The notes under the pieces were generated by a model that was given only the letters and a program-made list of their open reading frames with translations, did no database searches and was not told the origin of the DNA. The position numbers were made by a program, and so were the translations under genes. Below are positions 2,890-54,602 of a stretch of 64,000 nt of DNA, one piece after another. The DNA lies in the IMG/VR virus record IMGVR_UViG_3300037310_000496; one strand, 5' to 3'. Numbering within the stretch: position 1 is the stretch's first letter; each line of letters starts with the position of its first letter. The stretch comes from a virus.

Positions 2890-2944
2890 AATCAACCGCA
2901 CTTATACCGCATAATTTATATTGCGTAATGATATATACAGTATA

Positions 2945-3373
2945 ATGGCAATAAAAAACATAAAGAAGATTCGAGTTCGTAAATCTTATTATGATTTAAT
3001 GGAAGATACAGTCACACTGATGAAAAAAAATATAGTGATGACAATCGATGAATTGGCATTAAAAACAGGATATTCAAAACGAAGAATTTATGATGTCACT
3101 ACAGCATTGCATGCTTTGCAGCTGGTAAGTGTACAGCGCAGGAAAAAATGCAAGAGTGAAGTAGTATGGCTTGGCAAGGAAATAACTGAAGCAATCCCAC
3201 CAATTCAACCAATTCAAATTGACAAGGAAATTGAATTGTTCACTTCTCACTTGGTCATACAAACCCAACAAACTGAAATCAACAAAATTTCCCATAGGGA
3301 AGATGGAATCTATATCCAGATGGCGGAACCATCGAAAATATTGATTAGGGGTGAGGACAATGTCCGGATCTGA
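2945..3373 (+). CDS. E2F/DP-like winged-helix DNA-binding protein
   Basis: RKSYYDL...KRRIYDVTTALHALQLVS...EVVWLG aligns by eye with the E2F/DP DBD (KSL...KRRIYDITNVLEGIGLIEK...IQWKG); ATG at 2945. Confidence 0.7.
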   Translation: MAIKNIKKIRVRKSYYDLMEDTVTLMKKNIVMTIDELALKTGYSKRRIYDVTTALHALQLVSVQRRKKCKSEVVWLGKEITEAIPPIQPIQIDKEIELFTSHLVIQTQQTEINKISHREDGIYIQMAEPSKILIRGEDNVRI

Positions 3374-4107: not shown

Positions 4108-4464
4108 ATGAAAGTTGTAGAAGAGTCAAATAAAAATACAGATGTACATTACTCGATTGATACGCTTAAATGGAATGATGAACAGCTAGAACGATATGCA
4201 AAAGTAGTTGAAGCGTTTTGGAACATCAAAATTGCAAAAGGTGGAGCTATTATACTTCATTATTTGCATATACATGGTACTACCATAAATGCGAAATTGA
4301 GAGTTGATACCAATCTCCATCAAAAAACAATAACGTTGTGGGTTACAATATTCAAGGATGCTGGTATCATCAAGAAAATCATTAATTTAAATGATACACG
4401 TTCCGTCTTCATTTTTCTGTCAGACATTGCCCAACAGAAATTTGATTATGAGTTTAAATTATAG
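4108..4464 (+). CDS. MarR-like winged-helix protein
   Basis: ILHYLHIHG.T..KL...NLHQKTIT.WV..FKDAGII.K...DTRSVFIFLS pattern; ATG at 4108. Confidence 0.65.
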   Translation: MKVVEESNKNTDVHYSIDTLKWNDEQLERYAKVVEAFWNIKIAKGGAIILHYLHIHGTTINAKLRVDTNLHQKTITLWVTIFKDAGIIKKIINLNDTRSVFIFLSDIAQQKFDYEFKL

Positions 4465-5046
4465 TTTACTCATAAGTTCTTTCCAGATGCCATCAATATA
4501 TGGTATGTCCACAAATCGTTTCGAATAAATGGTACAATGAAAAACAATAGCAACGGACAAAATTAAAACACCTCCAAAGTTATTCATTTTAAGTTCTTTT
4601 TGGTATATTTCAATTTCATTGATTATATGCTGTATTTTTTCATCAAACGAATATGTATTATAAAGTCTATCACGTTCGATGATTTTAATTCTATTCATCA
4701 TATAATTTTCAATTTCAGGTTTTGTCCATTTAGTTGTCATTGAGAGTATTTCAATGAAAAATTGGATTAGCCAAGCTTCTGCAATTTTAAAACCTTTAAG
4801 TACAGATGATTCATTGTTGATGGTAAAAGCATATCGTTCTTCAATATTTTTCATGATCTGGTTAGTCACCAGATTTTGTTTTTCAATTATGTCGTCTAAT
4901 ATGTTTGGTATTTTGGATACCAAATTCAGTACGTATTGTTTTTGTTTAGCCTGATCTAGCATGATATACTTAAGTTCTTGCTGAAATGTCTGAATTTGGT
5001 CCAATATTGCTTTTATTATCTTCAGGGTATTGATGTCGTCAACCAT
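4459..5046 (-). CDS. Hypothetical helical/coiled-coil protein
   Basis: 195 aa ORF with hydrophobic segment near C-terminus. Confidence 0.55.
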   Translation of the reverse strand: MVDDINTLKIIKAILDQIQTFQQELKYIMLDQAKQKQYVLNLVSKIPNILDDIIEKQNLVTNQIMKNIEERYAFTINNESSVLKGFKIAEAWLIQFFIEILSMTTKWTKPEIENYMMNRIKIIERDRLYNTYSFDEKIQHIINEIEIYQKELKMNNFGGVLILSVAIVFHCTIYSKRFVDIPYIDGIWKELMSKL

Positions 5047-6661: not shown

Positions 6662-7078
6662 TTAGCAAATTAAACATTCAAATTTATTTTCCTTGACTGC
6701 CTTCATTATGTACTCTCTGAAAATTGTAAATGGATGGAGATGTTCAGTTTCTATATGCCAGCTGAAGGCGCTATGTATTCCATTCATGTGATGAAGTATA
6801 CCTTCATGAATGAGTACATGAGTGCTGCCTGGAGTAATGTCCATTTCTTCCAGCATTTTTAAGTCTGAGTCGTTGGATTCAGACTTTAGCTTTTCAAGTA
6901 TCTCTGTATAGACAGAGATTTTCATTTTGTCCATAGTTTCAATGGGAGTGAAAAGAATATTTAAATATTGTTGTATGAACATGTTAGTAAATCGCCTATA
7001 TGATCGATGCTTTAGGCACTTTGCTTGCAACAACCTGTTTCCAGCCAAGATCGTCATTCGTTTTCCATCCGATTTCAT
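6662..7078 (-). CDS. Hypothetical His-rich protein
   Basis: 138 aa, HEGILHHMNGIHS..WHIETEHLH. Confidence 0.5.
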   Translation of the reverse strand: MKSDGKRMTILAGNRLLQAKCLKHRSYRRFTNMFIQQYLNILFTPIETMDKMKISVYTEILEKLKSESNDSDLKMLEEMDITPGSTHVLIHEGILHHMNGIHSAFSWHIETEHLHPFTIFREYIMKAVKENKFECLIC

Positions 7079-7256
7079 AGCCTACTGCATTTCTCAACAA
7101 CTCGTTTGCAACCTTGAGTGTAGTTCCACTTCCAGCAAATGGGTCAAGTATGGTTTCATCTGGAAAACTGAACATTTTTATTAGTCGCCTAGGCAGTTCT
7201 TCAGGAAACATTGCCATATGGTTATCCTGCTTTACTCCATTTAATCCAAAGTCCAT
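6996..7256 (-). pseudogene. C-terminal fragment of an N4-C/N6-A DNA methyltransferase (beta class)
   Basis: HMAMFPEELPRRLIKMFS..ETILDPFAGSGTT..GYEI (SAM-binding half); catalytic DPPY/SPPY half absent. Confidence 0.75.
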
Positions 7257-7498: not shown

Positions 7499-8833
7499 TC
7501 AAGAATTTGCAATCATCTCCACTAAACCAAGAGGGTTACTAATAACTCCGAGATAGTCAAATATCTTGCTGCTAATGCCTGGAAGCTCAAGGATATTCGA
7601 CCCAACAGTCTGCGGTGACTGGGTACGGAGAAATCCATTGAGGTTGATGTTGATCACCAATCCTGAAGGTACAGAAACTGGTGGCGAATGGGAGTACTGC
7701 ATGTTACCCAATATGAATATGACATCATATGGCAGTGATGCCATATTGGCATATTCATAAACAGTGCACAATAATGGTATTTTTCCGACACGAGCCCTGA
7801 TGCGGTGATATAATTTCATTACATTGATTCCATTGCATTCGATTGTTTGGATCTTGTCATTGAATATCACCATATCAACCTCACCTCCCGATCTTCTGAC
7901 TGCATCATGAAGAACATAACCAAATACCGATGCATGTTTTATTGGATTTCCAGCCATGGTGATTGATCCATTGATTGCAATCAAGTATTTCCCTTTCTTG
8001 ACCTCGAAACTGCTAAATGAATACTTGATAGCCTTTACTATAGCCCGTCTGTAATGAATGGATGCAACAGCCTCATATGCATCAATGAATTCGAAAGGAA
8101 GAACTCCTGATTTTTTGACCTCATCAAGGTTCGATAACTTGCCAACTATCGCCTTACTGTCAACAATGGTTTTTTCAATTAATGGAAGATTCATCAAAAT
8201 ATTTTTGTATGACATAAAAGGGATAGACAACTCTAGATTATTTATAGACCACTTTCGTGAGGATTTGATTGACCCATCCAGGATGCTCTTAAATAGATGG
8301 CTTTGGATATCGTCTTTAGGCTTTGGATGGACAATCTTGATTATGTTTTTCAGGCTAGATCCAGAGATGTTGTCATCAATATAGTCTGATGGTTTTAACT
8401 CATTGAGCCAAATTTCAGTGGCATTCTTGAGAAGCCTAGGCAAGCTGGTTTTGCCCCCATAGTTCTTCGAAAGAAAGTATTTCCATATAGTCAACACATC
8501 ATCGACATCAATAAAGACATTTTTAGCCAAAATTTTTTTCGGGCTGATTTTATCACTCCTGAACATTCTCAATTCAGGATTCATTATATATTTAATGACT
8601 AGAACATATGTCACTGCACGCAAGTTCCAATCATTTCTGGTGTATTTCAATAGATTCCAGAGGAATGGGTAATTGGACTTGTCCTGGGAAAGGGTAGATA
8701 CTAACTTAATAATTCTCTTGATTCTGTCAGGCAATGTCTCGTGATATCCATTATCTTTGATTGCCGTGGATACTGCAGCTACCAGCTCATTTCTTGTATC
8801 CATGTATGGGTATGGTGCCAGTGTATATATCAC
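7499..8833 (-). CDS. rsr: Ro60/TROVE-domain RNA-binding protein
   Basis: YTRNDWNLRAV, SLPRLLK, SLKNIIKIVHPKP (TROVE) plus C-terminal vWA domain with degenerate MIDAS (AINGSITM; ILGNMQ). Confidence 0.85.
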   Translation of the reverse strand: MIYTLAPYPYMDTRNELVAAVSTAIKDNGYHETLPDRIKRIIKLVSTLSQDKSNYPFLWNLLKYTRNDWNLRAVTYVLVIKYIMNPELRMFRSDKISPKKILAKNVFIDVDDVLTIWKYFLSKNYGGKTSLPRLLKNATEIWLNELKPSDYIDDNISGSSLKNIIKIVHPKPKDDIQSHLFKSILDGSIKSSRKWSINNLELSIPFMSYKNILMNLPLIEKTIVDSKAIVGKLSNLDEVKKSGVLPFEFIDAYEAVASIHYRRAIVKAIKYSFSSFEVKKGKYLIAINGSITMAGNPIKHASVFGYVLHDAVRRSGGEVDMVIFNDKIQTIECNGINVMKLYHRIRARVGKIPLLCTVYEYANMASLPYDVIFILGNMQYSHSPPVSVPSGLVININLNGFLRTQSPQTVGSNILELPGISSKIFDYLGVISNPLGLVEMIANS

Positions 8834-8855
8834 ATGCCATATTTACGGCTATAAA

Positions 8856-8863
8856 TATTTAAA
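8856..8863 (-). promoter_or_regulatory. Archaeal TATA box for Ro60 gene (leaderless)
   Basis: TTTAAATA 23-30 nt upstream of GTG start at 8833, inside palindrome AATATTTAAATATT. Confidence 0.6.
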
Positions 8864-8906
8864 TATTCGTTTGTTAACTTATAACGTTCAAAACAAAATA
8901 AAAAAT

Positions 8907-9037
8907 GCGGAAACGAGGGATGAATGTTATGTATTTCAGTGTGTCTTAAACCGCCAAACGACCCTACCATACAAGCTGGCAGAGGGAAGGAGTCGAACTT
9001 TCCTTTTCACTGAAAAAACACTCCTATGGAATTCCGC
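8907..9037 (-). ncRNA. yrlA: Y RNA (YrlA-like, circularly permuted tRNA mimic)
   Basis: 5-prime GCGGAA pairs 3-prime UUCCGC; GAGUGUU/AACAUUC; UUUCAGUG/CACUGAAA; then T arm GGAAAG-UUCGACU-CCUUCC, closed acceptor-like stem CUCUGCCA/UGGUAGGG, D arm GUUU-GGCGGUUUA-AGAC; 3-prime U tract; directly upstream of Ro60. Confidence 0.8.
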
Positions 9038-9058
9038 AATGATCATATCGTCCATAAA

Positions 9059-9070
9059 TATTTAAACTTT
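9059..9070 (-). promoter_or_regulatory. BRE/TATA promoter of the Y RNA
   Basis: AAAG-TTTAAATA located 22-33 nt upstream of the predicted RNA 5-prime end. Confidence 0.6.
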
Positions 9071-9437: not shown

Positions 9438-9472
9438 TTCATCATTCTCCGTGACATTTAAATATAGCACGA

Positions 9473-9543
9473 TGAATATATCCGGAATCGAACCGGAAAT
9501 GACAACTTATAAGACTGCAGTGATTCCATTTCACTATATATTC
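9473..9543 (-). tRNA. tRNA-Ile(UAU), CCA not encoded
   Basis: Acceptor GAAUAUA/UAUAUUC, A73, D arm GUGA-AAUGGAA-UCAC, anticodon loop CU-UAU-AA (stem has 3 G-U pairs), T arm UCCGG-UUCGAUU-CCGGA; TTTAAATA box at 9570-9577. Confidence 0.85.
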
Positions 9544-9611
9544 ATCAAAGAAACCATATTGCACCTTATTATTTAAATATTTGTAGAGGTAACCATAATA
9601 TGTCAATCATG

Positions 9612-17590: not shown

Positions 17591-20500
17591 TTAATATCCA
17601 TCAAAGAAATTTATCAAAGATTGTTGTTTGGTTGTAATAGATACATCCAACAATTGCTGATATACACTTCCCACGATTGTGACATAATGTCTAAGATCTA
17701 TGTCGTTAATATCATTGACCAGTACACTTGGTATCCATCCATTATAACATTTCACATAGTCGACATGTATACCTTTTCTGATGGCTATATTCTTCCCAAT
17801 AGACTTAAAATGATTCTGGAGATTGTTTGCAGCTTGGACAATAGGTGTATTGTTTTTATAGTGATTTTGGTCATGGCATATAGAAAGGCAATTGCATAAT
17901 TCTTTAGTCAATATTTGAGTAAACTGTAACGATACTAGAGAAATATTATTACAATTCAAAATTGATAGGATTAATTTCTCTTTATTTTTGATGATATATT
18001 CTTCTATTTCTTTATTTGATTTTTCAAATGGGATACCATTGATACATTCTTTAAATGCTTTACGAATCAAAAGAGGAGTAGATTTTTTAATGCCTAAAAA
18101 ACCTTTTATTTTGATTTGATGGTCACTAAACAGAATGTAATTCTTTTTCTTATAGAAAAACATTGCCTTCCAAAATCCCTCGTTTGATACTTCCATACCG
18201 TCTTTTGACATTATTGAAACAATATCTGGTGAAACATTAGATGCAAATACTGAATCAGTATTATGACATTTTAAACCGTCAACTGCAAATGTACCCAATT
18301 TCGTCTCGAAGTCGTAGACATAGTTATCCAATCCTGGGAAATTCCGAAAATAAGTTCCGATTGTAAATTTTCTTAGATTTGAATTTCCGGATGTTTGTGC
18401 AAAAAAATATTTTTTTCTACTATAAGAATTAAAAACGAATTTAAATGCACCAAATTGATTGTGAAAAATACGAAATGATGCCATATGCAAATGGTTTGGA
18501 AAAACCCATCGACCATCGTTGAAATAATATCTTTCAATAAAATTATAATATAGTTTCGCTGCATCATAGGATAAATTAAATATTCCTGGATATGGCTTTA
18601 TTTTTTTGCCTTCTTCATCATATACTTCTCGTCTGACGATATCCCATAATTTATTGAACGATGAAAATGTTATGTCAAATCTTGGACGTGTACCATCTTT
18701 TATATATATGGTGTATGATATGCCCCAATCGTAAAACAATCTTCTGCAATATTCAAGAATGGCAATTATATGTTCCAGATATCGTGTATGCCCTTGTATA
18801 CTACAAAAATGGATATTACGTGAAATAGTCATATTGCGTGATGTTGTGCCACAAAGACTGAATATCGACAACATAAGAATTTGGTTGTCATAATTCCCTT
18901 TTGTTGTAGACAGATAATTGACAATAGGAAAAACCTTACTGGACAATGTTATCGAAGAATTGTTTATGTTCTTCATCAACAATATTGGTGATATTTCATG
19001 ACCATCATCAGTGACTAGAGAATGATCACCAGTGACATCAGCCATACCATGTTCCGTTGATACGCGAAACATGGATTTGCTAGTCAAATGTCTAATAAAA
19101 CCCAATAAAGGATTGAATTGGTCACCATCCCAAATTTCAAGATTTTTTCCTGATAAGTCAATCCTCTCTTTGGTTTCATGATGAGTCAATGCTGTATGTC
19201 CACGTTTGATTAATTGATTCCATAAACCAGTCACATCAATATTCATTATTTCTTTTGTTTCTGCAATACGAATGATGACTGGTGATGACCCAGCTACACT
19301 ATCACCATAATGTACTGTACCACCTTCATCTTGGACTGTTTTTATAAGGTGAGCCAAAGATCTTCGTGATGTTGCAGTGACAGCTTGGGCAATATCTCCA
19401 TTAAAAAACATAAATCCTTCATTTGCCATGCATCCATATACTGCATTCATGACAACCTTGAAAAATTGAGAAATGGAAACAGCCGACTGGCTAAATTCTT
19501 TGTGGATTGGATTGCTTCTAGGTTTGTATATTTTTAGTCGTGCACTCCTAAGAAAAATAAGTGACGCTGGAATAATTCCGACATAATGATTGCATGATTT
19601 TATTGGATATGTCGGTAGATCAATGATTGGACATTCAGAATGTCCACAATTGACTGTTGAAAAACATAGGTTATACTTGATGATATTTGTCGGGTATAAT
19701 GATGCAAAATCCAGGACGGAAATGTTGCGATAAATTCCAGGATTAGCTGTAATAACGTCTGCACCAATGATGTTGTTTTTTGTTTTATTACTATATGGGA
19801 TATGAATATTCCTTTGGTGGAGATATCTAATTAAAAATCCATTCCACCATGTAGTTACTCCACTCCTATTAGCTTTATATAAACTTAGGTCACTAAATCT
19901 CATGATAAAAAACAAAATGAAAACTGGAAAATTGTCATTGTGGGTCGCCAATTTAAATGTCAATTGTGCATCCTTAGCATTATAATAAGCCAATTCGTTT
20001 GAATCGAGTGATTCAATACTTCCCTCGTATAAATATTTGCCTTCCTTAATTACTGCCCTTGCAACAGTATCAAGTTTATTGTTTTCATATCCACCATAAA
20101 CATAATTGGATATGCTTGGATTTGAAAAATATTCATAAAGATCCAATACGATTTTATTTTTCCATTTTATTTTTCTGACTTTCATGAATCCAAAAGTTTC
20201 TTCACTCCAATAAATATTAAATTGATTGTTCAATCCAAATAATTCAATGCGGTGAACAATATATGGTACATCAAACCCATCACCATGATAAAATACGAGA
20301 AAAGGTTGAACCATTTGAGATATATAATTAAGGGATGCAACAAGAAGATCTTTTTCACTTTTGAATATTTCAAGTATAAAATTGTCAGGATTAGCATTGG
20401 CATTGGCATTTTCGATGTTCTTTTGATGGAGTATAAAATTATCAATGGTGAATACTCTAGTGCTATCGTATGTAGTAACAGCTATGGATGTTATCGGAAC

Positions 20501-21253
20501 TTGAGAATATAGTGGATCCATCGAATCCATGAAATTAGCTTGAATTTCAATGTCTATACATGCAATAAGTTTATGCCAAGGTGGTAAAGGTGCATGAATA
20601 ATTTCATGAAGTATTTTACCCATACCTATAGCTTCCTTAGGTATAGATTGGTAAACATCCGCATATAGTGCATCATTTGCACTGTCTTTGCTGACAACTT
20701 GAGTGAAAACACCATTGGAAAAAATATATGGCATGCCCATCATCATTTTTGTCTCGTTTAAAACAAGATTCGAATAAATGACTTTATTATTGTAAACAAG
20801 TTGGGAATCACTTTCAAAAAGGGAAGAAATGCCTTTTGGGCCAGAAACTGCTGATGGTGTATGAACCACGACTTTTGTCAATTTCACTTCCGATCCCCTA
20901 ACATCTTTCATGGTTATGTCGACCAATGACTTAATTTTAGAGTTGACATTATTTATCATTAACACCTTGACAACTTCATTTCTTGGCATCTTCACGAAAA
21001 AGAATGGTGATACTGTATTTACGACATATTTGAATAATTTTCCTGAAATATCAATGAAAACAAATTGATGATTACTATCTTTCATATAATTGGTGTCTAT
21101 TAACCAATACATCCCATCATTTTTAATCGTAGGTAAACTATAGTTGTTGAATCTACGATGTTTCTGATTAATAATACCATCTGAATCGGAAACATCGTCG
21201 TTTTGAATCCAAACCGATCCATGCTTTTTTCTCATGTCAACTGGTCTAAGCAT
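17591..21253 (-). CDS. polB: Family B DNA polymerase with intein and C-terminal PIP box
   Basis: ExoI DIE, ExoII YHGDGFDVPYI, ExoIII YNAKDA, A DFASLYP, B KVVMNAVYG, C YGD|TDS split by intein; QQSLINFF at C-terminus. Confidence 0.97.
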   Translation of the reverse strand: MLRPVDMRKKHGSVWIQNDDVSDSDGIINQKHRRFNNYSLPTIKNDGMYWLIDTNYMKDSNHQFVFIDISGKLFKYVVNTVSPFFFVKMPRNEVVKVLMINNVNSKIKSLVDITMKDVRGSEVKLTKVVVHTPSAVSGPKGISSLFESDSQLVYNNKVIYSNLVLNETKMMMGMPYIFSNGVFTQVVSKDSANDALYADVYQSIPKEAIGMGKILHEIIHAPLPPWHKLIACIDIEIQANFMDSMDPLYSQVPITSIAVTTYDSTRVFTIDNFILHQKNIENANANANPDNFILEIFKSEKDLLVASLNYISQMVQPFLVFYHGDGFDVPYIVHRIELFGLNNQFNIYWSEETFGFMKVRKIKWKNKIVLDLYEYFSNPSISNYVYGGYENNKLDTVARAVIKEGKYLYEGSIESLDSNELAYYNAKDAQLTFKLATHNDNFPVFILFFIMRFSDLSLYKANRSGVTTWWNGFLIRYLHQRNIHIPYSNKTKNNIIGADVITANPGIYRNISVLDFASLYPTNIIKYNLCFSTVNCGHSECPIIDLPTYPIKSCNHYVGIIPASLIFLRSARLKIYKPRSNPIHKEFSQSAVSISQFFKVVMNAVYGCMANEGFMFFNGDIAQAVTATSRRSLAHLIKTVQDEGGTVHYGDSVAGSSPVIIRIAETKEIMNIDVTGLWNQLIKRGHTALTHHETKERIDLSGKNLEIWDGDQFNPLLGFIRHLTSKSMFRVSTEHGMADVTGDHSLVTDDGHEISPILLMKNINNSSITLSSKVFPIVNYLSTTKGNYDNQILMLSIFSLCGTTSRNMTISRNIHFCSIQGHTRYLEHIIAILEYCRRLFYDWGISYTIYIKDGTRPRFDITFSSFNKLWDIVRREVYDEEGKKIKPYPGIFNLSYDAAKLYYNFIERYYFNDGRWVFPNHLHMASFRIFHNQFGAFKFVFNSYSRKKYFFAQTSGNSNLRKFTIGTYFRNFPGLDNYVYDFETKLGTFAVDGLKCHNTDSVFASNVSPDIVSIMSKDGMEVSNEGFWKAMFFYKKKNYILFSDHQIKIKGFLGIKKSTPLLIRKAFKECINGIPFEKSNKEIEEYIIKNKEKLILSILNCNNISLVSLQFTQILTKELCNCLSICHDQNHYKNNTPIVQAANNLQNHFKSIGKNIAIRKGIHVDYVKCYNGWIPSVLVNDINDIDLRHYVTIVGSVYQQLLDVSITTKQQSLINFFDGY
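18260..19300 (-). mobile_element. Intein (347 aa) in PolB motif C, with degenerate LAGLIDADG region
   Basis: YGD|SVAGSSPVIIR...FAVDGLKCHN|TDSVF; Ser1, block B TGDHS, terminal HN, Thr+1. Confidence 0.9.
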
Positions 21254-47259: not shown

Positions 47260-47310
47260 AAACCTAGCCAAGACTAGCTTGGCATGCTGGTGCGACTCCA
47301 GCTAGGTTTA
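47260..47310 (+). ncRNA. Anticodon-less tRNA-like element 1
   Basis: AAACCUA/UAGGUUU acceptor, GCCAAG/CUUGGC hairpin, T arm GCUGG-UGCGACU-CCAGC. Confidence 0.7.
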
Positions 47311-47660
47311 TGAGCCTCTCTCGGAGGCTACTTGAGGACCGTCCGGTAGAAGTCCTGTAGCTCCTACCAGGAACGGTCCTATACGGTGAAATACCCACCG
47401 AGCCATATAGTGAAAACTATATGGACGATGGGTATGGTAGCCCTAGTAGCCGAGAAAAGAGGCTCCAGCTACCGATATTACCTATCGGTAGCATTCTTGC
47501 CCTAGGCATAGGGCAAGAAAAAGAGTCGATGACCTCGACTCTAGGCAGACCCTAGGCGTGACTAGGGTCGGACCAACATACCTCCAGTCATGAAGGAGGT
47601 ATGGACATCACCCACTAGCTATGGGTGATGTCGAGGGTGGAGTAGCCCTATGGGCTACTT
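47311..47660 (+). other. Array of about 11 back-to-back hairpins (non-coding)
   Basis: e.g. TTGCCCTA/TAGGGCAA 47497-47516, GAGTCGA/TCGACTC 47523-47541, CATACCTCC/GGAGGTATG 47577-47603, GACATCACCCA/TGGGTGATGTC 47604-47632, GTAGCCC/GGGCTAC 47642-47658. Confidence 0.85.
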
Positions 47661-47663
47661 CTA

Positions 47664-47706
47664 GTTCCCCCGAAGTAATATGGGAGTGCAACTCTTCCAG
47701 GGGACA
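47664..47706 (+). ncRNA. Anticodon-less tRNA-like element 2
   Basis: GUUCCC/GGGGAC stem, T arm GGGAG-UGCAACU-CUUCC, followed by AUCC and hairpin. Confidence 0.65.
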
Positions 47707-47781
47707 TCCGCCTATAGATCACATATCTATAGGTTTATCAGGCACTCGTCTGCCTGGGAATCCAGACGAGGGGTGAAAAAA

Positions 47782-48114
47782 ATGAACAACATAAATAAAA
47801 CAGAAGATGTCATAATTTTCTGTATGTGCACAAAGGAATGCACCTTTGTGCACGTACAGAAAACTGACTGTCAATGGGACTGTCGTTCCATTGACAGTTT
47901 GACCATCTGTCGGGACCACTCGTATGTCCCGACAGATACACCTTTCTGTCGGGGTTGCAGTCTAAAAATCAAAAAGACTGCCGCCCCGGCAGATCTTCCA
48001 AGTTGCAGAATTAACTGTGACGTACGTTCGATACGTCACAGTGAATTCTGTGACCGGTTCATGAACAACCATGCCAAATTATGGCGTGGTAATGATTACA
48101 TAGGACCTGAGTAA
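47782..48114 (+). CDS. Cys/His-rich small protein
   Basis: ATG 47782 after GGGTGA; about 10 Cys in CxxC-like spacing. Confidence 0.65.
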   Translation: MNNINKTEDVIIFCMCTKECTFVHVQKTDCQWDCRSIDSLTICRDHSYVPTDTPFCRGCSLKIKKTAAPADLPSCRINCDVRSIRHSEFCDRFMNNHAKLWRGNDYIGPE

Positions 48115-48126
48115 TCTCAGGTCTAA

Positions 48127-48176
48127 ACCCCTAGCCTAGATGGAGGCTAGCGGAGGTTCGATTCCTCCTAGGGGTA
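48127..48176 (+). ncRNA. Anticodon-less tRNA-like element 3
   Basis: ACCCCUA/UAGGGGU, GCCU-AGAUGG-AGGC, T arm GGAGG-UUCGAUU-CCUCC, then AUCC. Confidence 0.8.
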
Positions 48177-48254
48177 TCCGATCCATGGGAACATATCCAT
48201 GGATCATAAAGGGTCCCAGCCTACCCTGGAGACTAGGCTGGAAAGGTGAGTGCA

Positions 48255-48710
48255 ATGAAAGTGATTTTTAGATCGGCATCTCTGCCGTTTTTCTCGTGGC
48301 TTATAGCCACGAAAAAAGAACGGGCAGAGATAGCCCGCCGTGGCGGGTATAGCCACGGCGAAAAATTCGAAGCCTCCACAGGTGACTTTGTCACCTGTGG
48401 TGGCAACCGATACGGAAGAACCGGTACATATACCGGTTCGTTCCGGGGAATAACTGGAAGTAACGGTCTAATTGACCAATACTTCCAGTACAAGACCCTC
48501 CCGGGTAAAATTACCCGGGAGTGGAAATATCTCCCCAAGGAGGAGAAAAACCTCCTCCTTGAGGAATTTTCACAGTTAGTGATCATGGCGATCACTAGCT
48601 GCGAAACCGAAGGGGTTAATAGACTCCTTCGGTTAAAAATTCCACGAGGAAGAATCCTCGTGAAGGGTGAGCACCACAAGAATTGTGGTGCTTGCACCGT
48701 TTGGAAATAG
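48255..48710 (+). CDS. Early-region hypothetical protein
   Basis: ATG 48255 after AGGTGA; C-terminal HHKNCGAC. Confidence 0.65.
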   Translation: MKVIFRSASLPFFSWLIATKKERAEIARRGGYSHGEKFEASTGDFVTCGGNRYGRTGTYTGSFRGITGSNGLIDQYFQYKTLPGKITREWKYLPKEEKNLLLEEFSQLVIMAITSCETEGVNRLLRLKIPRGRILVKGEHHKNCGACTVWK

Positions 48711-48724
48711 AAAACCTATTTCCT

Positions 48725-48779
48725 ATCTCCCGCCCAGAGTAGGCTGGGCATTGATGGAGTTCGAATCTCCAGGGAGACA
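48725..48779 (+). ncRNA. Anticodon-less tRNA-like element 4
   Basis: UCUCCC/GGGAGA, GCCCAG/CUGGGC, T arm UGGAG-UUCGAAU-CUCCA, then AUCC. Confidence 0.8.
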
Positions 48780-48851
48780 TCCCCCATAGGTTTTCACCTA
48801 TGGGTATCAATGGTACTAGCCTGCCATGGAAACTAGGCTAGAGGTGGAAAA

Positions 48852-49181
48852 ATGAGTGAAACGAAAATTCCAGACGATCTAGATCATCTAGATCATCTAG
48901 ATGATCTAGATAATATAGATGATCTAGATGATCTAGATGATCTAGATGATTTAGATGATCTAGATCTAGACTCTCATATTCATGAGAGTCTAGAAGAGGT
49001 GGAGACACCTGATCTCCACATACTCAACGGGGACATGTACTGTCCCTGTCATTGTCCCGCCACTTCATGTGGCGGGACTGAGCGGGATGAAAACCCGCAC
49101 AACCATTTCCCCCAAGAGGGGGAATTGGAAGCAGGGGATTCCTGCTTCTATTGTAATATGAAAGAGCCCTGCGAGTGCTAG
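48852..49181 (+). CDS. Acidic-repeat, Cys/His-rich small protein
   Basis: (DDL)n N-terminus then YCPCHC..C, CFYC..PCEC; AGGTGG SD. Confidence 0.65.
   Translation: MSETKIPDDLDHLDHLDDLDNIDDLDDLDDLDDLDDLDLDSHIHESLEEVETPDLHILNGDMYCPCHCPATSCGGTERDENPHNHFPQEGELEAGDSCFYCNMKEPCEC
48873..48962 (+). repeat. 9-bp coding repeat x10 (GATGATCTA, DDL)
   Basis: Ten consecutive units with minor variants. Confidence 0.9.
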
Positions 49182-49226
49182 AGCTCTTTCGAAAAAATCA
49201 CCTAGGATTTATCTAGGTGATTTTAC

Positions 49227-49278
49227 ATTTTCTGCCCAGGAAAGGCTGGGCTTGGGTGTTCGACTCACCCAGAAAATA
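49227..49278 (+). ncRNA. Anticodon-less tRNA-like element 5
   Basis: AUUUUCU/AGAAAAU, GCCCAG-GAAAGG-CUGGGC, T arm GGGUG-UUCGACU-CACCC, then AUCC. Confidence 0.8.
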
Positions 49279-49279
49279 T

Positions 49280-49510
49280 CCGATCCATAAGAATCTAGGA
49301 GGCGTTTTACGCTTCCTTGATATCAAGAGTGACCTTAGGGTTATTCTTGGAACTCGGCGAGTATATCTCGCCGACTGGATAGCGGAAAATGAGTTAGCCT
49401 GCCAATGGCAGGCTGACTGTCTATAAAAATAAATATGTCACCTAGTATAGCTAGGTGACATATTTCATGAATGATTTGGATGATATGGACAATTGTTCAT
49501 ATCATCCATA
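49280..49510 (+). other. Second hairpin array (non-coding)
   Basis: TCGGCGAG/CTCGCCGA 49354-49374, 15-bp perfect IR 49431-49465, GGATGATATG/CATATCATCC 49478-49507 and others. Confidence 0.8.
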
Positions 49511-49529
49511 ACCATAAGAAGGTGAAAAA

Positions 49530-50087
49530 ATGAGTGTAAGCGAAAAAACTTATCGAATCTTCACGCTCAAAGGACGAGCAGACTGGCTCGTCGAAGGAGC
49601 TGAAGTAGAGGAATTCATTCTTTCCAACGGCACCGCCATCACGGCAGTTGCCGTTGGAGAGACTGGAAGAGGGAGAAGCCTAGGACTTCTCCCGATCAAC
49701 GCTAACAAGGGTAGATTTGTTACCCTTGTAACCATTGGAACAACCAAGGCGGGGCATCCTCGCCTGTTTGTCTCCAATGGAAAACCAACAGACGACGAAG
49801 CAATCGTCGTCTGGAAACTAGAGGGAGGCTACCGAGGTAGCCTTTCCTATACTCCCAATCCCCCTGGGCGAGTGCTAGCCCAGGGGAACACCGCCCAAGG
49901 GGATGCTGGGAGGATGGGATCTAGCTTACAGCTAGTTACCATCCTCCCCATTTCCACCCCAGTGAGGGTGGAATATTCTGGTCGGCTCTACGGAGCCGAC
50001 CCAGCTCATACGATTGAACTGCATCCAGGTGGAGTCCTGGATGTAGCAACGGACTTAGAGATCCAAGTCCGTAATGCAACCGATTGA
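49530..50087 (+). CDS. Conserved phage hypothetical protein
   Basis: VAVGETGRGR..., LAQG.TAQGDAGRMGS motif; AGGTGA SD. Confidence 0.7.
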   Translation: MSVSEKTYRIFTLKGRADWLVEGAEVEEFILSNGTAITAVAVGETGRGRSLGLLPINANKGRFVTLVTIGTTKAGHPRLFVSNGKPTDDEAIVVWKLEGGYRGSLSYTPNPPGRVLAQGNTAQGDAGRMGSSLQLVTILPISTPVRVEYSGRLYGADPAHTIELHPGGVLDVATDLEIQVRNATD

Positions 50088-50180
50088 ACCCATTTTTCTT
50101 ATTATCTATTTATCATTTTTTATTTCCATCTTTTTTTATTGTGTCATTGGGATATTCCAGAAGGATATCCCAATGACACA

Positions 50181-50221
50181 ATCCCCAATAGTGACAAGGA
50201 GTGCAAATCTCCTAGGGGATA
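50181..50221 (+). ncRNA. Anticodon-less tRNA-like element 6
   Basis: AUCCCC/GGGGAU, T arm AGGAG-UGCAAAU-CUCCU, then AUCC. Confidence 0.75.
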
Positions 50222-50286
50222 TCCACCAATGGATATTTTTCCATTGGTCAAAAGGATACTAGCCTATCCTGGACTCTAGGCTAGAG

Positions 50287-50511
50287 GTGAACGAATGGAT
50301 ACCATTATGGTATCTTGAGCGTCTATATACGCTCAAAAACAGCGTTTATGTAATCTATTCTTTTGAATATCGAAACATACTCGACAGGAGAATGGAAAAA
50401 ATGAGTATGGAAATTACCCGTACTCCCGCCAGTACCATCTGGCATTTGGAAATTGCTTCCATGTCAGATGGTGTGATTTCCCAACGGAAGCTGGAAAAAT
50501 CGAAAAGATGA
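50287..50511 (+). CDS. Possible small or decayed ORF
   Basis: The SD-positioned ATG (50295) opens only a 7-codon frame; the 74-aa frame starts at GTG inside the SD. Confidence 0.3.
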   Translation: MNEWIPLWYLERLYTLKNSVYVIYSFEYRNILDRRMEKMSMEITRTPASTIWHLEIASMSDGVISQRKLEKSKR

Positions 50512-50563
50512 CTAGTCTATGACTGTCGTCTAGCATCTAGCTAGGTGCTAGACAACAACATAA

Positions 50564-50603
50564 ATCCCTACTAGTATTAGGAGTGCAAGTCTCCTGAGGG
50601 ATG
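50564..50603 (+). ncRNA. Anticodon-less tRNA-like element 7
   Basis: AUCCCU/AGGGAU, T arm AGGAG-UGCAAGU-CUCCU, then GUCC. Confidence 0.75.
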
Positions 50604-50686
50604 TCCACCTATGAAAAACCCAATATAGGTTTCCATAGGCAATAAGGATATCCGCCTATCCAGGAATCCAGGCGGAAGGTGACAAT

Positions 50687-51835
50687 ATGACCAGACAACC
50701 AAATTTCAGCTTTGTCCAGCTGAAAAATGCATCGGCGTCGAAGTTCAACAATTCGGCGTCTATTTCATTGATGGACAAAGCCTCTGAATTTGAGTCGGAA
50801 ATGGAGTCCATCCATTTCCGACCTCAGGAAATGGAGTTTGAAGGTCGGGCGACCAATTTTGGTCGCCTAACCGATAGAAGTATCGGCGACCTTCTTTCCA
50901 AGTCGACCATAGACGTCAAGAAAGACGATTACGATCGACTTGGGACTCTCATGAACGGAGAAATTGGCAGGCTCCTTTTGGTAGCGGCATCCAGCCGCCC
51001 CACCAAGGAGCAGCACAAGCTCCTAAGATACGATGGCGAAATAAAAGCCATCGTAGGGACTAACTACCCCTCTCCTAGGGAGATGGGGTTTTCTGTCCCC
51101 AGATTGGTCAAGGAAATCAATTCCTTGACAACAGTGCACAAGATGCACTCAGTCTGGGAACCGAACACTGGCATCCAGGGTGCCCAGATGATCCTCCACA
51201 TAGAAGATCACCCAGTCCTGGGGCAACCCATGGGCTATGGAATTGACATCTTCAATTCCATCTATGGCGGAGCAAGTCTCCGCATAAATCTGACCACCCT
51301 GAACCTGGTCTGCACCAATGGTGCGACCAGCAGGTCTCCATTGACAGGAGTGGAAATTGTCCACTCCTCCACTGCAAATGTGGCGAAAGGATTGATTCGC
51401 CTACTTAGCAGCAGTGGAAATTCCGACTTGAACATTGTTCGGCAGCTAGAATCTGCTGCCATGGTCAACGGAAGTCGCAGACTAGTTCGAGAGGAAAACA
51501 TCCCCTCTTTCCACACCCAAATTGCCAAAGCAATTTTGGGCAAGACCAAGATCAATGTGGCAAATGATCGTGACACGATCACCCAAGCCACCCAAACAAA
51601 AATTGATGTTGATCTTGGGATCAGCAAACTAGTCAATGGGAAATCCCTCACAAAAAGTGAGGGTGAACAAGTAAAAGAAATCATGGTGGTAGATGACACC
51701 ATCCCCCATGATTTTCTTTACACTAGATATGGATTGGCGGCAGCCATATCCCGGCTAGCCAATCTGCCAACTATTGGAGCATCCCGATCTCGGGATCTCC
51801 AAATTTTGTCACAGGAGACTATGATAGCCACGTAG
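50687..51835 (+). CDS. DUF932-like protein
   Basis: LRYDGEIKAIVGTNY, IFNSIYGGASLRI...LVCTNGA; AGGTGA SD. Confidence 0.75.
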   Translation: MTRQPNFSFVQLKNASASKFNNSASISLMDKASEFESEMESIHFRPQEMEFEGRATNFGRLTDRSIGDLLSKSTIDVKKDDYDRLGTLMNGEIGRLLLVAASSRPTKEQHKLLRYDGEIKAIVGTNYPSPREMGFSVPRLVKEINSLTTVHKMHSVWEPNTGIQGAQMILHIEDHPVLGQPMGYGIDIFNSIYGGASLRINLTTLNLVCTNGATSRSPLTGVEIVHSSTANVAKGLIRLLSSSGNSDLNIVRQLESAAMVNGSRRLVREENIPSFHTQIAKAILGKTKINVANDRDTITQATQTKIDVDLGISKLVNGKSLTKSEGEQVKEIMVVDDTIPHDFLYTRYGLAAAISRLANLPTIGASRSRDLQILSQETMIAT

Positions 51836-51863
51836 TTCACTAGTACATGATCGTGGTAAAAAC

Positions 51864-51923
51864 GATCATGTATACGATGATGTATACGATGATGTATACG
51901 ATGATGTATACGATGATGTATTG
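51864..51923. repeat. 12-bp tandem repeat x5 (GATGATGTATAC)
   Basis: Five near-identical units just after the DUF932 stop. Confidence 0.9.
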
Positions 51924-52104
51924 ATACATGATCGCATACATGATCGTTTCATGTCGGTCATGTATCCATGCATGACCGATGCAAAAATGAACCGAAGGGC
52001 TAGTCCGCCCACAAGGTTGAAGATGTGCATTCACCCACACATCGCCAGACACTCACTCACCATCTGGCAACCTGGGTAAGGGACTACAGTCCCAAGGTGA
52101 ACAC

Positions 52105-52863
52105 ATGAAAATGGAAGACCTCGCAAATCTCCTGAAGACCGAAAGTATTCAAGAGATTGGAATGGAGATTCTGAAGAAATTCATTGACCGTCACTCGAAA
52201 GTAACGATAAAAGAATTTCTCAACGATTTTGTCGGGATTTCAGCAATTCGCTGTGACGAGTTGCTGGACTCTCTCAATCGTGAAACTGGTATTTTTCCTG
52301 ATAAGTCATACCAAAAAAACATCAGTGCCGATAATAAAAATATACAAAACGGCGCCGAATTGGTAGCGAAAAAGTTGCCTATTGTTGAAAAACCATTCAT
52401 CACCGAACCGGTGGAATGGTTAACAATTGTCAGTGAAACCACTGATGAAGTCTCCGGTGTGTTGACGGATGAAAAAACCGTCAACATAGAAACTGACGAC
52501 AAAAAGGAAAAAAACCGACCAATAACTGGTCGGTATATAAAGAAAAATACCGAGAATAAACCCATAATCCATGAAGAGCCAAAAGGCGCCATGGTATACG
52601 AGCTGAAATATTTAATTGAAATGGCTCGATCCGAATATCCCATCCAAAGCGGGAATTGGATAAAAATATCATGGGAAAATGGGAAAAAATACAGTAAGCC
52701 ATTCTGTAAATTGACAAACGAGAATGGTGAACAATGGTTAGAAGTGGTGGATCGTATCTACCACGAAGATGGTAAAAGAGAAGGGAAGGTTTATATTCCC
52801 TTGCCCGGGAAAATATTTTTCCCAATAAGTGGAAATGAAGCCATCCGTATAATGGTTGTGTAG
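52105..52863 (+). CDS. Early-region hypothetical protein
   Basis: 252 aa; GGGACT/AGTCCC hairpin then AGGTGA-4nt-ATG. Confidence 0.65.
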   Translation: MKMEDLANLLKTESIQEIGMEILKKFIDRHSKVTIKEFLNDFVGISAIRCDELLDSLNRETGIFPDKSYQKNISADNKNIQNGAELVAKKLPIVEKPFITEPVEWLTIVSETTDEVSGVLTDEKTVNIETDDKKEKNRPITGRYIKKNTENKPIIHEEPKGAMVYELKYLIEMARSEYPIQSGNWIKISWENGKKYSKPFCKLTNENGEQWLEVVDRIYHEDGKREGKVYIPLPGKIFFPISGNEAIRIMVV

Positions 52864-53377
52864 GGTTATTCCCTACATTTAACCAAAAGTGTAAAATCAC
52901 AAAACACATTTTACGATTTTACATGGAATCTAAATAAAGGTGTTTTTCACATAACCCTTATATATCCCGCTTATATACCATTTATATACAAAAACGGCTA
53001 TTTAAAGGGTATTTAAACCATGAAATTTTTATCATTTTTTTGATCATTATTTCCCACGGGTTTTTATAATAACCATTCCAAATTTACTGGAACCAGTAAG
53101 AAATGCCTTTAAAAAAAAAACACTGAAAAAAAGGAAAGGTAACCATAAAACTATATTCCAGATCTTACGAAAAGGTTTGTTTGTAGTTTGAAAAGCATCA
53201 AATGCACGTCCACCCACGTAATATATGTATACGTAGTATATTCAACATGGGGTGGACGTGAACCAATCCTGTAAAAAACCCCACAAATCAGTATTGACCA
53301 TGGTATGACTTTTTATTCCACCATGGTTTAAATATAAGGTACTCTATAGTGGGTTAGGAGTTTACGTTTCTCCTGAT

Positions 53378-53971
53378 TTGGTGTACTGTAATATTACAGC
53401 ACAACCGAAAAACGTAGGGAACATGTATGTGAAAAAAAGAAAACCTCAACACCTAAACAAAACCAAACATAAGCCGCTGTACCCAACAAATGAGAATATA
53501 ACTTCCTGGAAGAGGGAATTGACGTTCGCCAATTCCTCCCCAGCAAGAAATATCCAAATTGTTAAGTTCTGGACTTGGTGGAATGTAGCAAAGGCAATGG
53601 GGTTCATTCCCAAGGACTTATCGTTCTTGGTGGAGGATGCCATTGTTCACGACATTCCCATCAAAGTATCAGCTCCAAAGGCTGACATCATCTACAATGA
53701 TGGAATAGTATGCTTGATCAGAACGCAGGTCGCACATGATCTAGACAGTCAGGGAGCATATGACCGTCTTGATCCGGAAGTTCATGGTGCCACTTGGATA
53801 TCCCAGTTTGGATTATACCTATGGGTGGTCACTGATCCGTCTGTCCTGGCAGAATGGAGGAAATGGAAATCCAAAACCCATAATTGGCAGTGGTGGCAGC
53901 AACAAGAGCAACGGAAACAGCAACAGCAACAGCAACAGCAACAACAACAACGACAGCAAAGACAACCATAA
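53378..53971 (+). CDS. Hypothetical protein with poly-Gln C-terminus
   Basis: KADIIY..CLIRTQ weakly PD-(D/E)XK-like; CAG/CAA run 53896-53968; true start may be ATG about 53424. Confidence 0.55.
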   Translation: MVYCNITAQPKNVGNMYVKKRKPQHLNKTKHKPLYPTNENITSWKRELTFANSSPARNIQIVKFWTWWNVAKAMGFIPKDLSFLVEDAIVHDIPIKVSAPKADIIYNDGIVCLIRTQVAHDLDSQGAYDRLDPEVHGATWISQFGLYLWVVTDPSVLAEWRKWKSKTHNWQWWQQQEQRKQQQQQQQQQQQRQQRQP

Positions 53972-53985
53972 AAAAAGGTGGTAGT

Positions 53986-54378
53986 ATGTACAGAAAAAAG
54001 AAGACAATGAGTCAAGAAATGACTCAACTAAAACTGATCCTCGGATATAAACATCTATCCGAAGTGATCACTGGCACTGCAGGCAAAAGCATGTCTGCAG
54101 TTTCAATGATGGTAATCAGAAAACTGATTGTCATGGAAAATATCATTCGAAAAAATGACTGGTATATCATCAAATGGACACGAAGAAAACATTTTGTGTT
54201 CACTCAAGCCAATGGGATTGACCTTGTCCTATATATCCATCCCGAACTGGTTGATGAGGGATATGTCATTGTTCTCCATCGACAAAAATACACGGTCAGC
54301 CAAATTTTGCTGGTTGAGGATCTTTATAATGAATACCATGAGCTGGTGATGAAATACAGCGGAACCTGGATGGAGTAG
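53986..54378 (+). CDS. Hypothetical protein
   Basis: ATG 53986 after AGGTGG. Confidence 0.6.
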   Translation: MYRKKKTMSQEMTQLKLILGYKHLSEVITGTAGKSMSAVSMMVIRKLIVMENIIRKNDWYIIKWTRRKHFVFTQANGIDLVLYIHPELVDEGYVIVLHRQKYTVSQILLVEDLYNEYHELVMKYSGTWME

Positions 54379-54541
54379 GCATTCCATCCAAGGAGCTCCG
54401 ACAATAGACTTCGCCATATAGAAGCCTAAACTAAAAAACTGAACCTCCGTCCATTCATGTTCATATTCTTTGTTTTTATTTTTGTTTTTATTTCTATTTT
54501 TATTTTTATATCCAGATCGTTGAATATGTCTCTGAAGGACG

Positions 54542-54558
54542 TAAATATTTAAATATTC
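54542..54558. promoter_or_regulatory. Palindromic TATA element identical to the one at 8852-8868
   Basis: TAAATATTTAAATATTC, exact 17-mer match. Confidence 0.55.
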
Positions 54559-54562
54559 AGTA

Positions 54563-54602
54563 GTCCTCAATAGTATTGGGAGTGCAAGTCTCCTAGAGGA
54601 TG
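54563..54602 (+). ncRNA. Anticodon-less tRNA-like element 8
   Basis: GUCCUC/GAGGAU, T arm GGGAG-UGCAAGU-CUCCU, then GUCC and hairpin GCCUUUG/CAAAGGC. Confidence 0.75.

Follow-up and report, generated by a model that had tools for sequence, protein, structure and literature searches.

The locus described here lies on the minus strand of a 64,000-nucleotide (nt) viral stretch, IMG/VR record IMGVR_UViG_3300037310_000496 (hereafter the window, whose coordinates are used throughout), and consists of a gene for a protein with the TROVE ring and vWA domain of Ro60 and, directly upstream on the same strand, a 131-nt RNA element with the architecture of a Y RNA. The virus is a tailed double-stranded (ds) DNA virus, with an HK97-type capsid and a terminase found in the window, which also encodes a tail sheath, baseplate J, PolB, a C5 methylase and a helicase. 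The features of the locus are the following, with the basis of each assignment in parentheses.

Layout of the locus and fold of the RNA

9059-9070, minus strand: promoter of the Y-like RNA, resembling a B recognition element (BRE) and TATA box, AAAGTTTAAATA (direct sequence reading)
9066-9059, minus strand: TATA 8-mer TTTAAATA within this promoter, 29 nt upstream of the RNA 5' end
8907-9037, minus strand: Y RNA-like gene, 131 nt, a YrlA-type permuted tRNA mimic (fold, ARAGORN and model R1, for which see below)
9024-9037, minus strand: 5' strand of the putative Ro60-binding module, GCGGAA (9037-9032) and loop UUCCAUAG (9031-9024) (fold and homologue motifs)
8985-9003, minus strand: T-arm mimic, a 6-bp stem with one A.C mismatch, loop UUCGACU and G53-C61 (sequence and ARAGORN drawing)
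8962-8984, minus strand: closed acceptor-like stem of 7-8 bp with the 7-nt loop GCUUGUA (fold and ARAGORN)
8943-8959, minus strand: D-arm mimic, a 4-bp stem and a loop of 9 nt that holds GG and ends in A, with a U8-like U in front of it at 8961 (sequence and ARAGORN)
8907-8928, minus strand: 3' strand of the stem module, AACAUUC (8928-8922), loop AUCCCUCGU (8921-8913) and UUCCGC (8912-8907) (fold)
8890-8906, minus strand: U-rich tract after the terminal stem, a likely terminator (sequence reading)
8856-8863, minus strand: TROVE gene TATA box, lying 30 nt upstream of GTG 8833, a leaderless arrangement (sequence and motif-to-start distances)
7499-8833, minus strand: Ro60-like gene (TROVE ring and vWA), 444 amino acids (aa) from GTG 8833 or 434 aa from ATG 8803

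This layout agrees with a preliminary description of the locus, which had placed at 8907-9037 a minus-strand element with a long terminal stem and a T arm, acceptor-like stem and D arm in permuted order, equipped with its own BRE/TATA (9059-9070) and a U-rich 3' end and located immediately upstream of a separately promoted Ro60 gene. The RNA 3' end and the TROVE start are 74 nt apart, with the second TATA box in the gap between them. Read on the minus strand, 9037-8907 contains no open reading frame (ORF), and the plus-strand ORF that overlaps the RNA (8757-9065) received no family support.

The minimum free energy and centroid folds of the RNA are alike, both comprising a 6-bp terminal stem (GCGGAA, 9037-9032, with UUCCGC, 8912-8907), an internal loop of 8x9 nt in which UUCCAUAG faces the pyrimidine-rich AUCCCUCGU, a 7-bp helix and an 8-bp helix that closes a three-way junction. 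In tRNA numbering, the junction runs through a 4-5-nt variable region, the T arm, the acceptor-like stem, U8-N9, the D stem and one nt at position 26, with one extra C between the T and acceptor stems, and the helix that closes it stands in the place of the anticodon stem. The conserved tRNA positions present in the element are U8, R15, G18G19, A21, the pair G53:C61, U54, U55, C56, R57 and A58, and the acceptor-like helix covaries strongly in the class alignments described below.

Given that the fold energy alone is weak evidence (z = -1.5), the architecture was tested directly, by rejoining the parts in tRNA order with a synthetic 7-nt anticodon loop as the sole addition and submitting the result to ARAGORN under default settings. 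The circularly permuted core was accepted as a tRNA, and when the same permutation was applied at 127,740 offsets on both strands, sense calls were confined to the locus itself and to a position shifted by 3 nt from it; all others were antisense, one of them at the locus of the Y-like RNA and two involving A padding. Acceptance of the permuted form, together with the location of the 3' half before the 5' half and the joining of the acceptor halves by a short linker, would also be consistent with a circularly permuted tRNA gene whose transcript matures through a circular intermediate into a working tRNA. Such an origin appears extremely unlikely, considering that the termini lack a bulge-helix-bulge motif (the internal loops are 1x5 and 8x9 nt), that the nucleotides following the 5-bp 'anticodon stem' (AAAUACA / UUUUUU) give no 7-nt loop with U33, and that the helix runs on for 8 bp and then continues into the 7-bp and 6-bp helices.

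A very divergent Ro60 protein

The product of the TROVE gene scores 12.5 bits with Pfam TROVE (PF05731), below the curated cut-off of 23 (E = 0.08), and has no match in NCBIfam, but a phmmer search against the sequences in PDB aligned its residues 9-182 with the Ro60 of Thermus phage phiLo (9KOP/9L5Y) at E = 6.2e-9. An exhaustive HMMER search yielded 559 relatives, 10 of them at E<1e-30, and the ten nearest homologues (P0002-P0011, 28-43% identity) all pass Pfam TROVE, most of them also showing vWA_Ro60. As regards close relatives, a word-based protein search returned the protein alone and a profile search added nothing close. Given that the similarity reaches GTG 8833 and that a TATA box lies 30 nt before it, this codon was taken as the leaderless start.

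Structural comparisons lead to the same assignment. The ESM Atlas model reaches a TM-score of about 0.8 to TROVE clusters, most of which are viral. The AlphaFold2 (AF2) model, built on an alignment of 60 sequences (a single-sequence run was useless, with a pLDDT of 38), has a pLDDT of 88.5 and a pTM of 0.83 and contains the HEAT-repeat ring closed by a vWA domain. When this model was used as the Foldseek query, the 13 matches at E <= 0.001 (ranks 1-13) were all Ro60/Rsr chains, from phiLo, Xenopus, human and Deinococcus (E = 3e-14 to 3e-10, TM-score on the query 0.61-0.70), with phiLo Ro60 the best match and generic vWA domains far behind. The protein is a real but very divergent Ro60; the identity proposed in the preliminary description is borne out by the phiLo match and the AF2 model, although Pfam TROVE itself stays below its cut-off.

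One peculiarity of the protein is in the MIDAS (metal ion-dependent adhesion site) of the vWA domain. The five positions of the motif DxSxS...T...D are occupied by N278, S280, T282, P343 and N367, so that four of the five residues are changed (D278N, S282T, T343P, D367N) and no intact motif is present; the residues D, S, S, T and D are kept at these positions in all 59 of the 59 aligned homologues. Despite the degenerate site, the AF2 model is confident across the vWA domain. The loss of the MIDAS suggests that the role this site plays in other Ro60 proteins is dispensable or replaced here, and its occurrence in a well-folded Ro60 offers a natural test of whether the site matters for Y RNA binding.

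Relatives of the RNA in other TROVE loci

A single-sequence covariance model of the window RNA with its assigned structure (R1) was searched on 113 loci that had been fetched only for encoding TROVE relatives. At E<5 it produced 17 matches, with 4e-4 as the lowest E value; 16 of them are on the TROVE strand and most lie within a few hundred bases of the TROVE gene. In the window, R1 finds no second copy of the RNA. The matches in four loci (L054, L076, L079 and L101) coincide with sub-threshold Rfam YrlA scores of 34-40 bits and, given that these phage RNAs fall far below the Rfam gathering score of 69 bits, the curated RF02553 model is narrow. In the class alignment made with R1, which is fitted to the model and leans towards it, 94% of the cells pair, compared with 37-50% when the partners are slid, and both-side changes occur in 30 of the 39 pairs. 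A MAFFT/RNAalifold alignment of the Rfam-selected RNAs, from which the window was excluded, yields the same core, in which the T arm lies directly against a closed stem of 7 bp and a D arm follows this stem after 2 nt, with compensatory change in 13 of 16 pairs. The order described for YrlA is likewise T arm, acceptor stem-loop and D arm, with a V region (Chen et al., PMC4201824).

For eight proteins from the clade to which the window protein belongs (P0002 and P0004-P0010), contigs were fetched as well. These nearest TROVE homologues, at 30-38% identity, also have upstream, same-strand RNAs that are tRNA-like or of stem-bulge-stem form:

L110: two YrlA-like RNAs upstream of TROVE on the same strand (E = 7e-6 and 0.37)
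L109: one YrlA-like RNA upstream of TROVE on the same strand (E = 5e-4)
L111: one YrlA-like match upstream of TROVE on the same strand (E = 0.02), which overlaps a tRNA that has an insertion of 38 nt
L108: a permuted element truncated where the contig ends and a second tRNA-like RNA, upstream of TROVE on the same strand
L002: a long-stem RNA upstream of TROVE on the same strand (z = -3.5), with a tRNA-like core
L113: a 72-nt stem-bulge-stem RNA with CGAA upstream of TROVE on the same strand (z = -3.2)
L112: an RNA upstream of TROVE on the same strand, with ends that resemble those of the window RNA
L001: starts 73 nt before the TROVE gene, with a 3' end and U tract like those in the window

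The succession of stem, internal loop and helix seen in the window RNA recurs in L113, L110 and L002, and 3' ends followed by U tracts similar to that of the window are found in L112, in the second RNA of L110 and at the cut start of L001. In bacterial and phage Y RNAs, the corresponding loop holds the Ro60-contacting GNCGAA/CGAA motif (PMC4201824; PMC12135203). The 5' module of L113, GCAGGA-UUCCGAAG, occupies the same place as GCGGAA-UUCCAUAG in the window, and comparison of the 3' strands (UUCCGC in the window, UCCUGC in L113) reveals two compensatory changes in the terminal stem. The 5' module of L112 reads GAAG-UUCCAUAG, and elsewhere the loop motif appears as UUCCGAAG in L109, UUCCGAAC in L108 and UUCCAAAG in L111. 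The pattern UUCC[GA][AU]A[GCA], which was derived after seeing the data, is present in 6 of 9 upstream regions, with about 0.6 expected.

We consider it probable that the two genes specify the parts of a ribonucleoprotein of the Ro60/Y RNA kind, and that the tailed dsDNA virus carrying them has, most likely, an archaeal host. Several observations speak against this interpretation. The search with the Rfam YrlA model, which had been set beforehand as the test of the YrlA assignment, detected no match of RF02553 to the RNA, either at the gathering score or at E<=10, in the 64-kb window or in slices of 1 kb and 156 nt, and on the same three sequences the Rfam Y_RNA and tRNA models did not match the RNA either. 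A second model (R2), built from 11 TROVE-adjacent RNAs of other loci chosen only by their Rfam YrlA scores and searched on the window with filters off, assigned the RNA 10.8 bits (E = 2, rank 6 in the window), which is at noise level, and its top match in the window was the T arm of the true tRNA-Ile. RF02553 and R2 miss the RNA because its D arm reads GUUU/AGAC in place of the near-invariant GCUC/GAGC, its T stem is mismatched and its flanks differ. Profile methods do not demonstrate that the RNA is a member of the described YrlA family. Exact RNA-pattern scans of IMG/VR identified no close orthologue of the RNA, and scans of IMG/VR and metagenomes for the protein, in which the best identity was 25-28%, no close orthologue of the virus. 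As a tRNA mimic, the RNA deviates in having G at position 14 instead of A, no 15:48 Levitt pair and an A.C mismatch in the T stem; its fold energy is unremarkable; and the canonical GNCGAAN0-1G / CGAA motif is absent from its 5' strand, because the UUCCAUAG loop reads CAUA, while the terminal stem GCGGAA is one base off this motif. To these are added the short N-terminus of the protein, which starts about 15-25 residues later than its homologues, and the altered MIDAS; the TROVE gene could be a decaying or repurposed copy that drifts from its ancestral function.

Some of the same facts, namely the z-score of only -1.5, the lack of recognition by Rfam YrlA and by the rebuilt model R2, the mismatch in the T stem and the non-canonical D arm, might indicate that the RNA is a decayed tRNA-derived remnant or a functionless chance structure that happens to lie beside the TROVE gene. 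This we judge very unlikely given that the exact YrlA order and spacing is unique among the 127,740 offsets, that the element has a dedicated promoter and terminator and shares position and strand with the RNAs in the loci of the nearest homologues, and that its end-module motifs are common to those loci, with compensatory changes relative to L113. The element could also be a processing signal or 5' leader, that is, tRNA-like punctuation cleaved by RNase P or tRNase Z in a longer transcript that extends from tRNA-Ile into the TROVE mRNA. Such a role would be compatible with the presence of tRNA-Ile 435 nt upstream on the same strand, with eight other T-arm-bearing tRNA-like elements on the plus strand (47.3-54.6 kb) and with the acceptor-like stem of 7-8 bp, the feature that makes the YrlA of Mycobacterium smegmatis a substrate of RNase P (PMC4201824). 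It nevertheless appears improbable because the RNA is preceded by a TATA box of its own at the usual spacing and followed by a U tract, a separate TATA box precedes the TROVE start by 30 nt, R1 finds no second copy in the window, and the long terminal stem with the loop motif common to TROVE-adjacent RNAs would be superfluous for punctuation. The Y RNA of YrlA type claimed in the preliminary description is thus supported: the permuted layout, the ARAGORN result, the retrieval of TROVE-adjacent RNAs by R1 and the loci of the homologues are in its favour, with the lack of an Rfam YrlA match and the R2 result (E = 2) as caveats.

Several further details of the homologous loci can be recorded. L110 belongs to a 400-kb contig of a cellular assembly (GCA_026702845.1), in which the two YrlA-like RNAs are arranged in tandem (4394-4510 and 4850-4970) before TROVE, each with a 5' motif of the GAUUACAUC type that recurs at 4310 and 4770. 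The long-stem RNA of L002 (positions 85-260; homologue P0004) holds a D-anticodon-T core that scores 34.4 bits with Rfam tRNA (cut-off 29 bits), its acceptor strands are unpaired and ARAGORN calls no tRNA there; the TROVE gene of this contig (1768-3084) is directly followed by a gene for a CCA-adding enzyme (PolyA_pol and HD). In L111 (1181-1369), the YrlA-like match overlaps a 50-bit match of the tRNA model, which requires that 38 nt be inserted in the anticodon region and that the variable region be long. The acceptor 5' strand common to both matches forms the better helix with the 3' strand lying downstream. A tRNA with an intron, having a lone T arm in front of it, may account for this element.

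Host of the virus and possible function of the particle

The host of the virus is probably an archaeon, judging from the indirect evidence of the signals and genes encoded in the window. The motif TTTAAATAT occurs 13 times in the window, with 3.0 occurrences expected. TATA-like 8-mers peak at -32 to -27 relative to start codons (9 of 67 genes, compared with about 2 per bin elsewhere) and show no peak near -10, and TTTAAATA is located 29-33 nt upstream of the tRNA, the Y-like RNA and the TROVE gene alike. Among the ribosome-binding sites, those of the GGTGA type outnumber GGAGG. The PolB of the virus (1220 aa, 17591-21253, minus strand) is closest among PDB entries to 1S5J (E = 3e-49), which we take to be PolB1 of Sulfolobus solfataricus, followed by PolB of Thermococcales (about 1e-20) and RB69 (1e-9). 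The PDB and Pfam matches end at about residue 650, and the C-terminal 570 residues are unmatched save for a terminal PCNA-interacting protein (PIP) box, QQSLINFF, which fits the PIP consensus.

An alternative to be considered is that the gene pair is real but the virus is a bacteriophage. Most viral TROVE clusters come from phages, the sole weak TerL matches are to Thermus and T4-like phages, the host searches gave no match, and L109, the locus of a near homologue, has a bacterial-type hairpin-plus-U terminator. We find a bacteriophage unlikely in view of the TATA peak at the archaeal distance without a counterpart at -10, the TTTAAATA boxes before all three genes, the greater proximity of PolB to 1S5J than to RB69 and its PIP box, the predominance of GGTGA-type Shine-Dalgarno sequences and the presence of an E2F/DP-type winged helix in a 150-aa protein (2921-3373, plus strand; Pfam E2F_TDP, 30.2 bits at a cut-off of 25.7). 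The preliminary description had spoken of an archaeal virus; the archaeal-type signals (TATA spacing, PolB, PIP box) sustain this, the host itself being a prediction, as no host was matched and the taxa of the Atlas neighbours are uninformative. In the collection of cultured phages, only remote matches (PolB and TerL) were detected, so that the virus is remote from all of these phages. The PriS/PriL primase that the preliminary description had listed was not found by Pfam in the ORFs scanned. The Atlas neighbours of PolB often have inteins or homing endonucleases.

Among the known systems, those of bacteria and phages with Rsr/Ro60 and YrlA (Salmonella, Mycobacterium smegmatis and mycobacteriophages; PMC4201824; RF02553) share with the window an RNA gene that adjoins Ro60 on the same strand. 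In both, the 5' and 3' ends of the RNA pair into a stem broken by an internal loop and the distal tRNA mimic is ordered as V region, T arm, closed acceptor stem and D arm (PMC4201824); the acceptor-like stem of M. smegmatis YrlA is 7-8 bp long, as in the window RNA, and the Rsr/Ro60 proteins combine the TROVE ring with vWA, as does the window protein. The differences are also substantial: the window RNA has no Rfam match, has UUCCAUAG in the loop instead of a GNCGAA-type motif and GUUU/AGAC in the D arm where YrlA has the near-invariant GCUC/GAGC, and its T stem is mismatched; moreover, the promoter is of the archaeal type (TATA), the Ro60 mRNA is leaderless and the vWA MIDAS is lost. The Ro60 of Thermus phage phiLo with its RNAs Yrl1 and Yrl2 (PMC12135203; 9KOP, 9L5Y) is the best match of the window protein in both sequence and structure, and here too the system is virus-encoded, with Y-like RNAs upstream and a stem-bulge-stem module with a loop motif. 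The identity to the window protein is only about 20%, however, the host is bacterial and the partner is PNPase, and the Yrl RNAs of phiLo are described as hairpins with CGAA, the term 'tRNA-like' being absent from the text of that paper (PMC12135203). The Ro60-Y RNA particles of eukaryotes (Xenopus 1YVP, human 9NEN) have the same protein fold, with 12-13% identity, and a partner RNA with the binding site in its paired ends, but metazoan Y RNAs, unlike the window RNA, have no tRNA-like domain and contain a conserved bulged helix.

In archaeal elements, Ro60 genes have been annotated in the Nidhogg viruses of Asgard archaea (10.1101/2021.07.29.454249) and in Borg elements (PMC11208441). As in the window, these are TROVE and vWA proteins of an archaeal virus or extrachromosomal element, likened to the window protein by description only; the parts of these reports available to us name the protein and no partner RNA gene. 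No account of a Y RNA from an archaeal virus emerged from full-text literature searches, and the accessible portions of the literature on archaea and their viruses mention the protein gene and never the partner RNA. For phages, Ro60 together with YrlA or Yrl RNAs has been published (PMC4201824, PMC12135203), and TROVE proteins have been noted in jumbo phages (PMC7824862).

Much is known of Ro60-Y RNA particles from animals, bacteria and a small number of phages, in which the Y RNA tethers Ro60 to PNPase or accompanies RNA repair; specifically, it bridges Ro60 to PNPase in bacteria and in phage phiLo (PMC12135203). The findings in the window extend a known RNA-surveillance particle to a probable archaeal virus and represent no new kind of system; given that the architecture was already known, the gain is incremental rather than categorical. 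Nevertheless, a promoter-equipped, YrlA-shaped RNA beside Ro60 in a probable archaeal virus is a concrete pair that can be cloned, and it allows one to ask what Ro60 particles do in the absence of PNPase and why viruses of all domains keep acquiring them.

In the mechanism that we envisage for the two-part particle, the 131-nt RNA would be transcribed from its own TATA promoter and end at the U tract, and the TROVE ring would dock on the stem-loop-stem module, the predicted docking site, which consists of the 6-bp terminal stem, the loop formed by UUCCAUAG and its pyrimidine-rich counterpart, and the 7-bp helix. The tRNA-like half, in which the GG of the D loop and the UUC of the T loop would be able to form a tRNA elbow, might then be displayed to tRNA-recognising host proteins. 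By analogy with the bacterial and phage systems, the RNA may tether Ro60 to a host enzyme of RNA processing or decay, or gate the Ro60 cavity, and the virus could in this way divert or dampen RNA turnover in the host, or shield and repair RNAs while it infects the cell. What the analysis shows is the pairing of the two genes, their signals, the architecture of the RNA and the fold of the protein; expression, binding of the RNA by the protein, a partner in the host and a gain for the virus are predictions of this scheme. The preliminary description had proposed that the pair might recruit the host exosome, or serve as a decoy or repair aid against defences that cleave tRNAs.

To our knowledge, archaea lack PNPase, so one would not expect an archaeal host to supply this known effector; the effector of this particle must then be a different one. 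Under a more specific and quite unlikely version of the scheme, the MIDAS-less Ro60 and the tRNA-shaped Y RNA would recruit another machine, candidates being the archaeal exosome, RNase P, tRNase Z, the CCA-adding enzyme and RtcB, and the particle would process the eight tRNA-like elements at 47.3-54.6 kb or neutralise a host defence that targets tRNAs. If true, recruitment of a machine other than PNPase would constitute a new effector logic for Ro60 particles. No RNA-repair or nuclease genes were detected with Pfam and PHROGs among the ORFs that flank the locus.

With regard to the surroundings of the pair, the tRNA-Ile (anticodon UAU; 9471-9544, minus strand) scores 58.5 bits with Rfam, is also called by ARAGORN and is preceded by a TTTAAATA box of its own, 33 nt upstream of the 5' end; in phage contigs, tRNA genes often lie alongside TROVE loci. 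The eight T-arm elements, all on the plus strand at 47291-54583, each combine a fully paired T stem of 5 bp that includes G53:C61 with a 7-mer resembling a T loop (UUCGANU or UGCRANU). Eight such elements within 7.3 kb compare with 0.27 expected from shuffles, and the sole other site in the window is the real tRNA-Ile. Model R1 matches none of the eight, which indicates that they are not of the YrlA type; the Ro60/Y RNA system might act on them or be related to them. Downstream of the TROVE gene, an 86-aa ORF (6996-7256, minus strand) aligns with the central part of DNA methyltransferase families (phrog_67, E = 4e-19) and overlaps, in another frame, a 138-aa ORF (6662-7078), so that the two could represent a frameshifted or fragmented methyltransferase gene.

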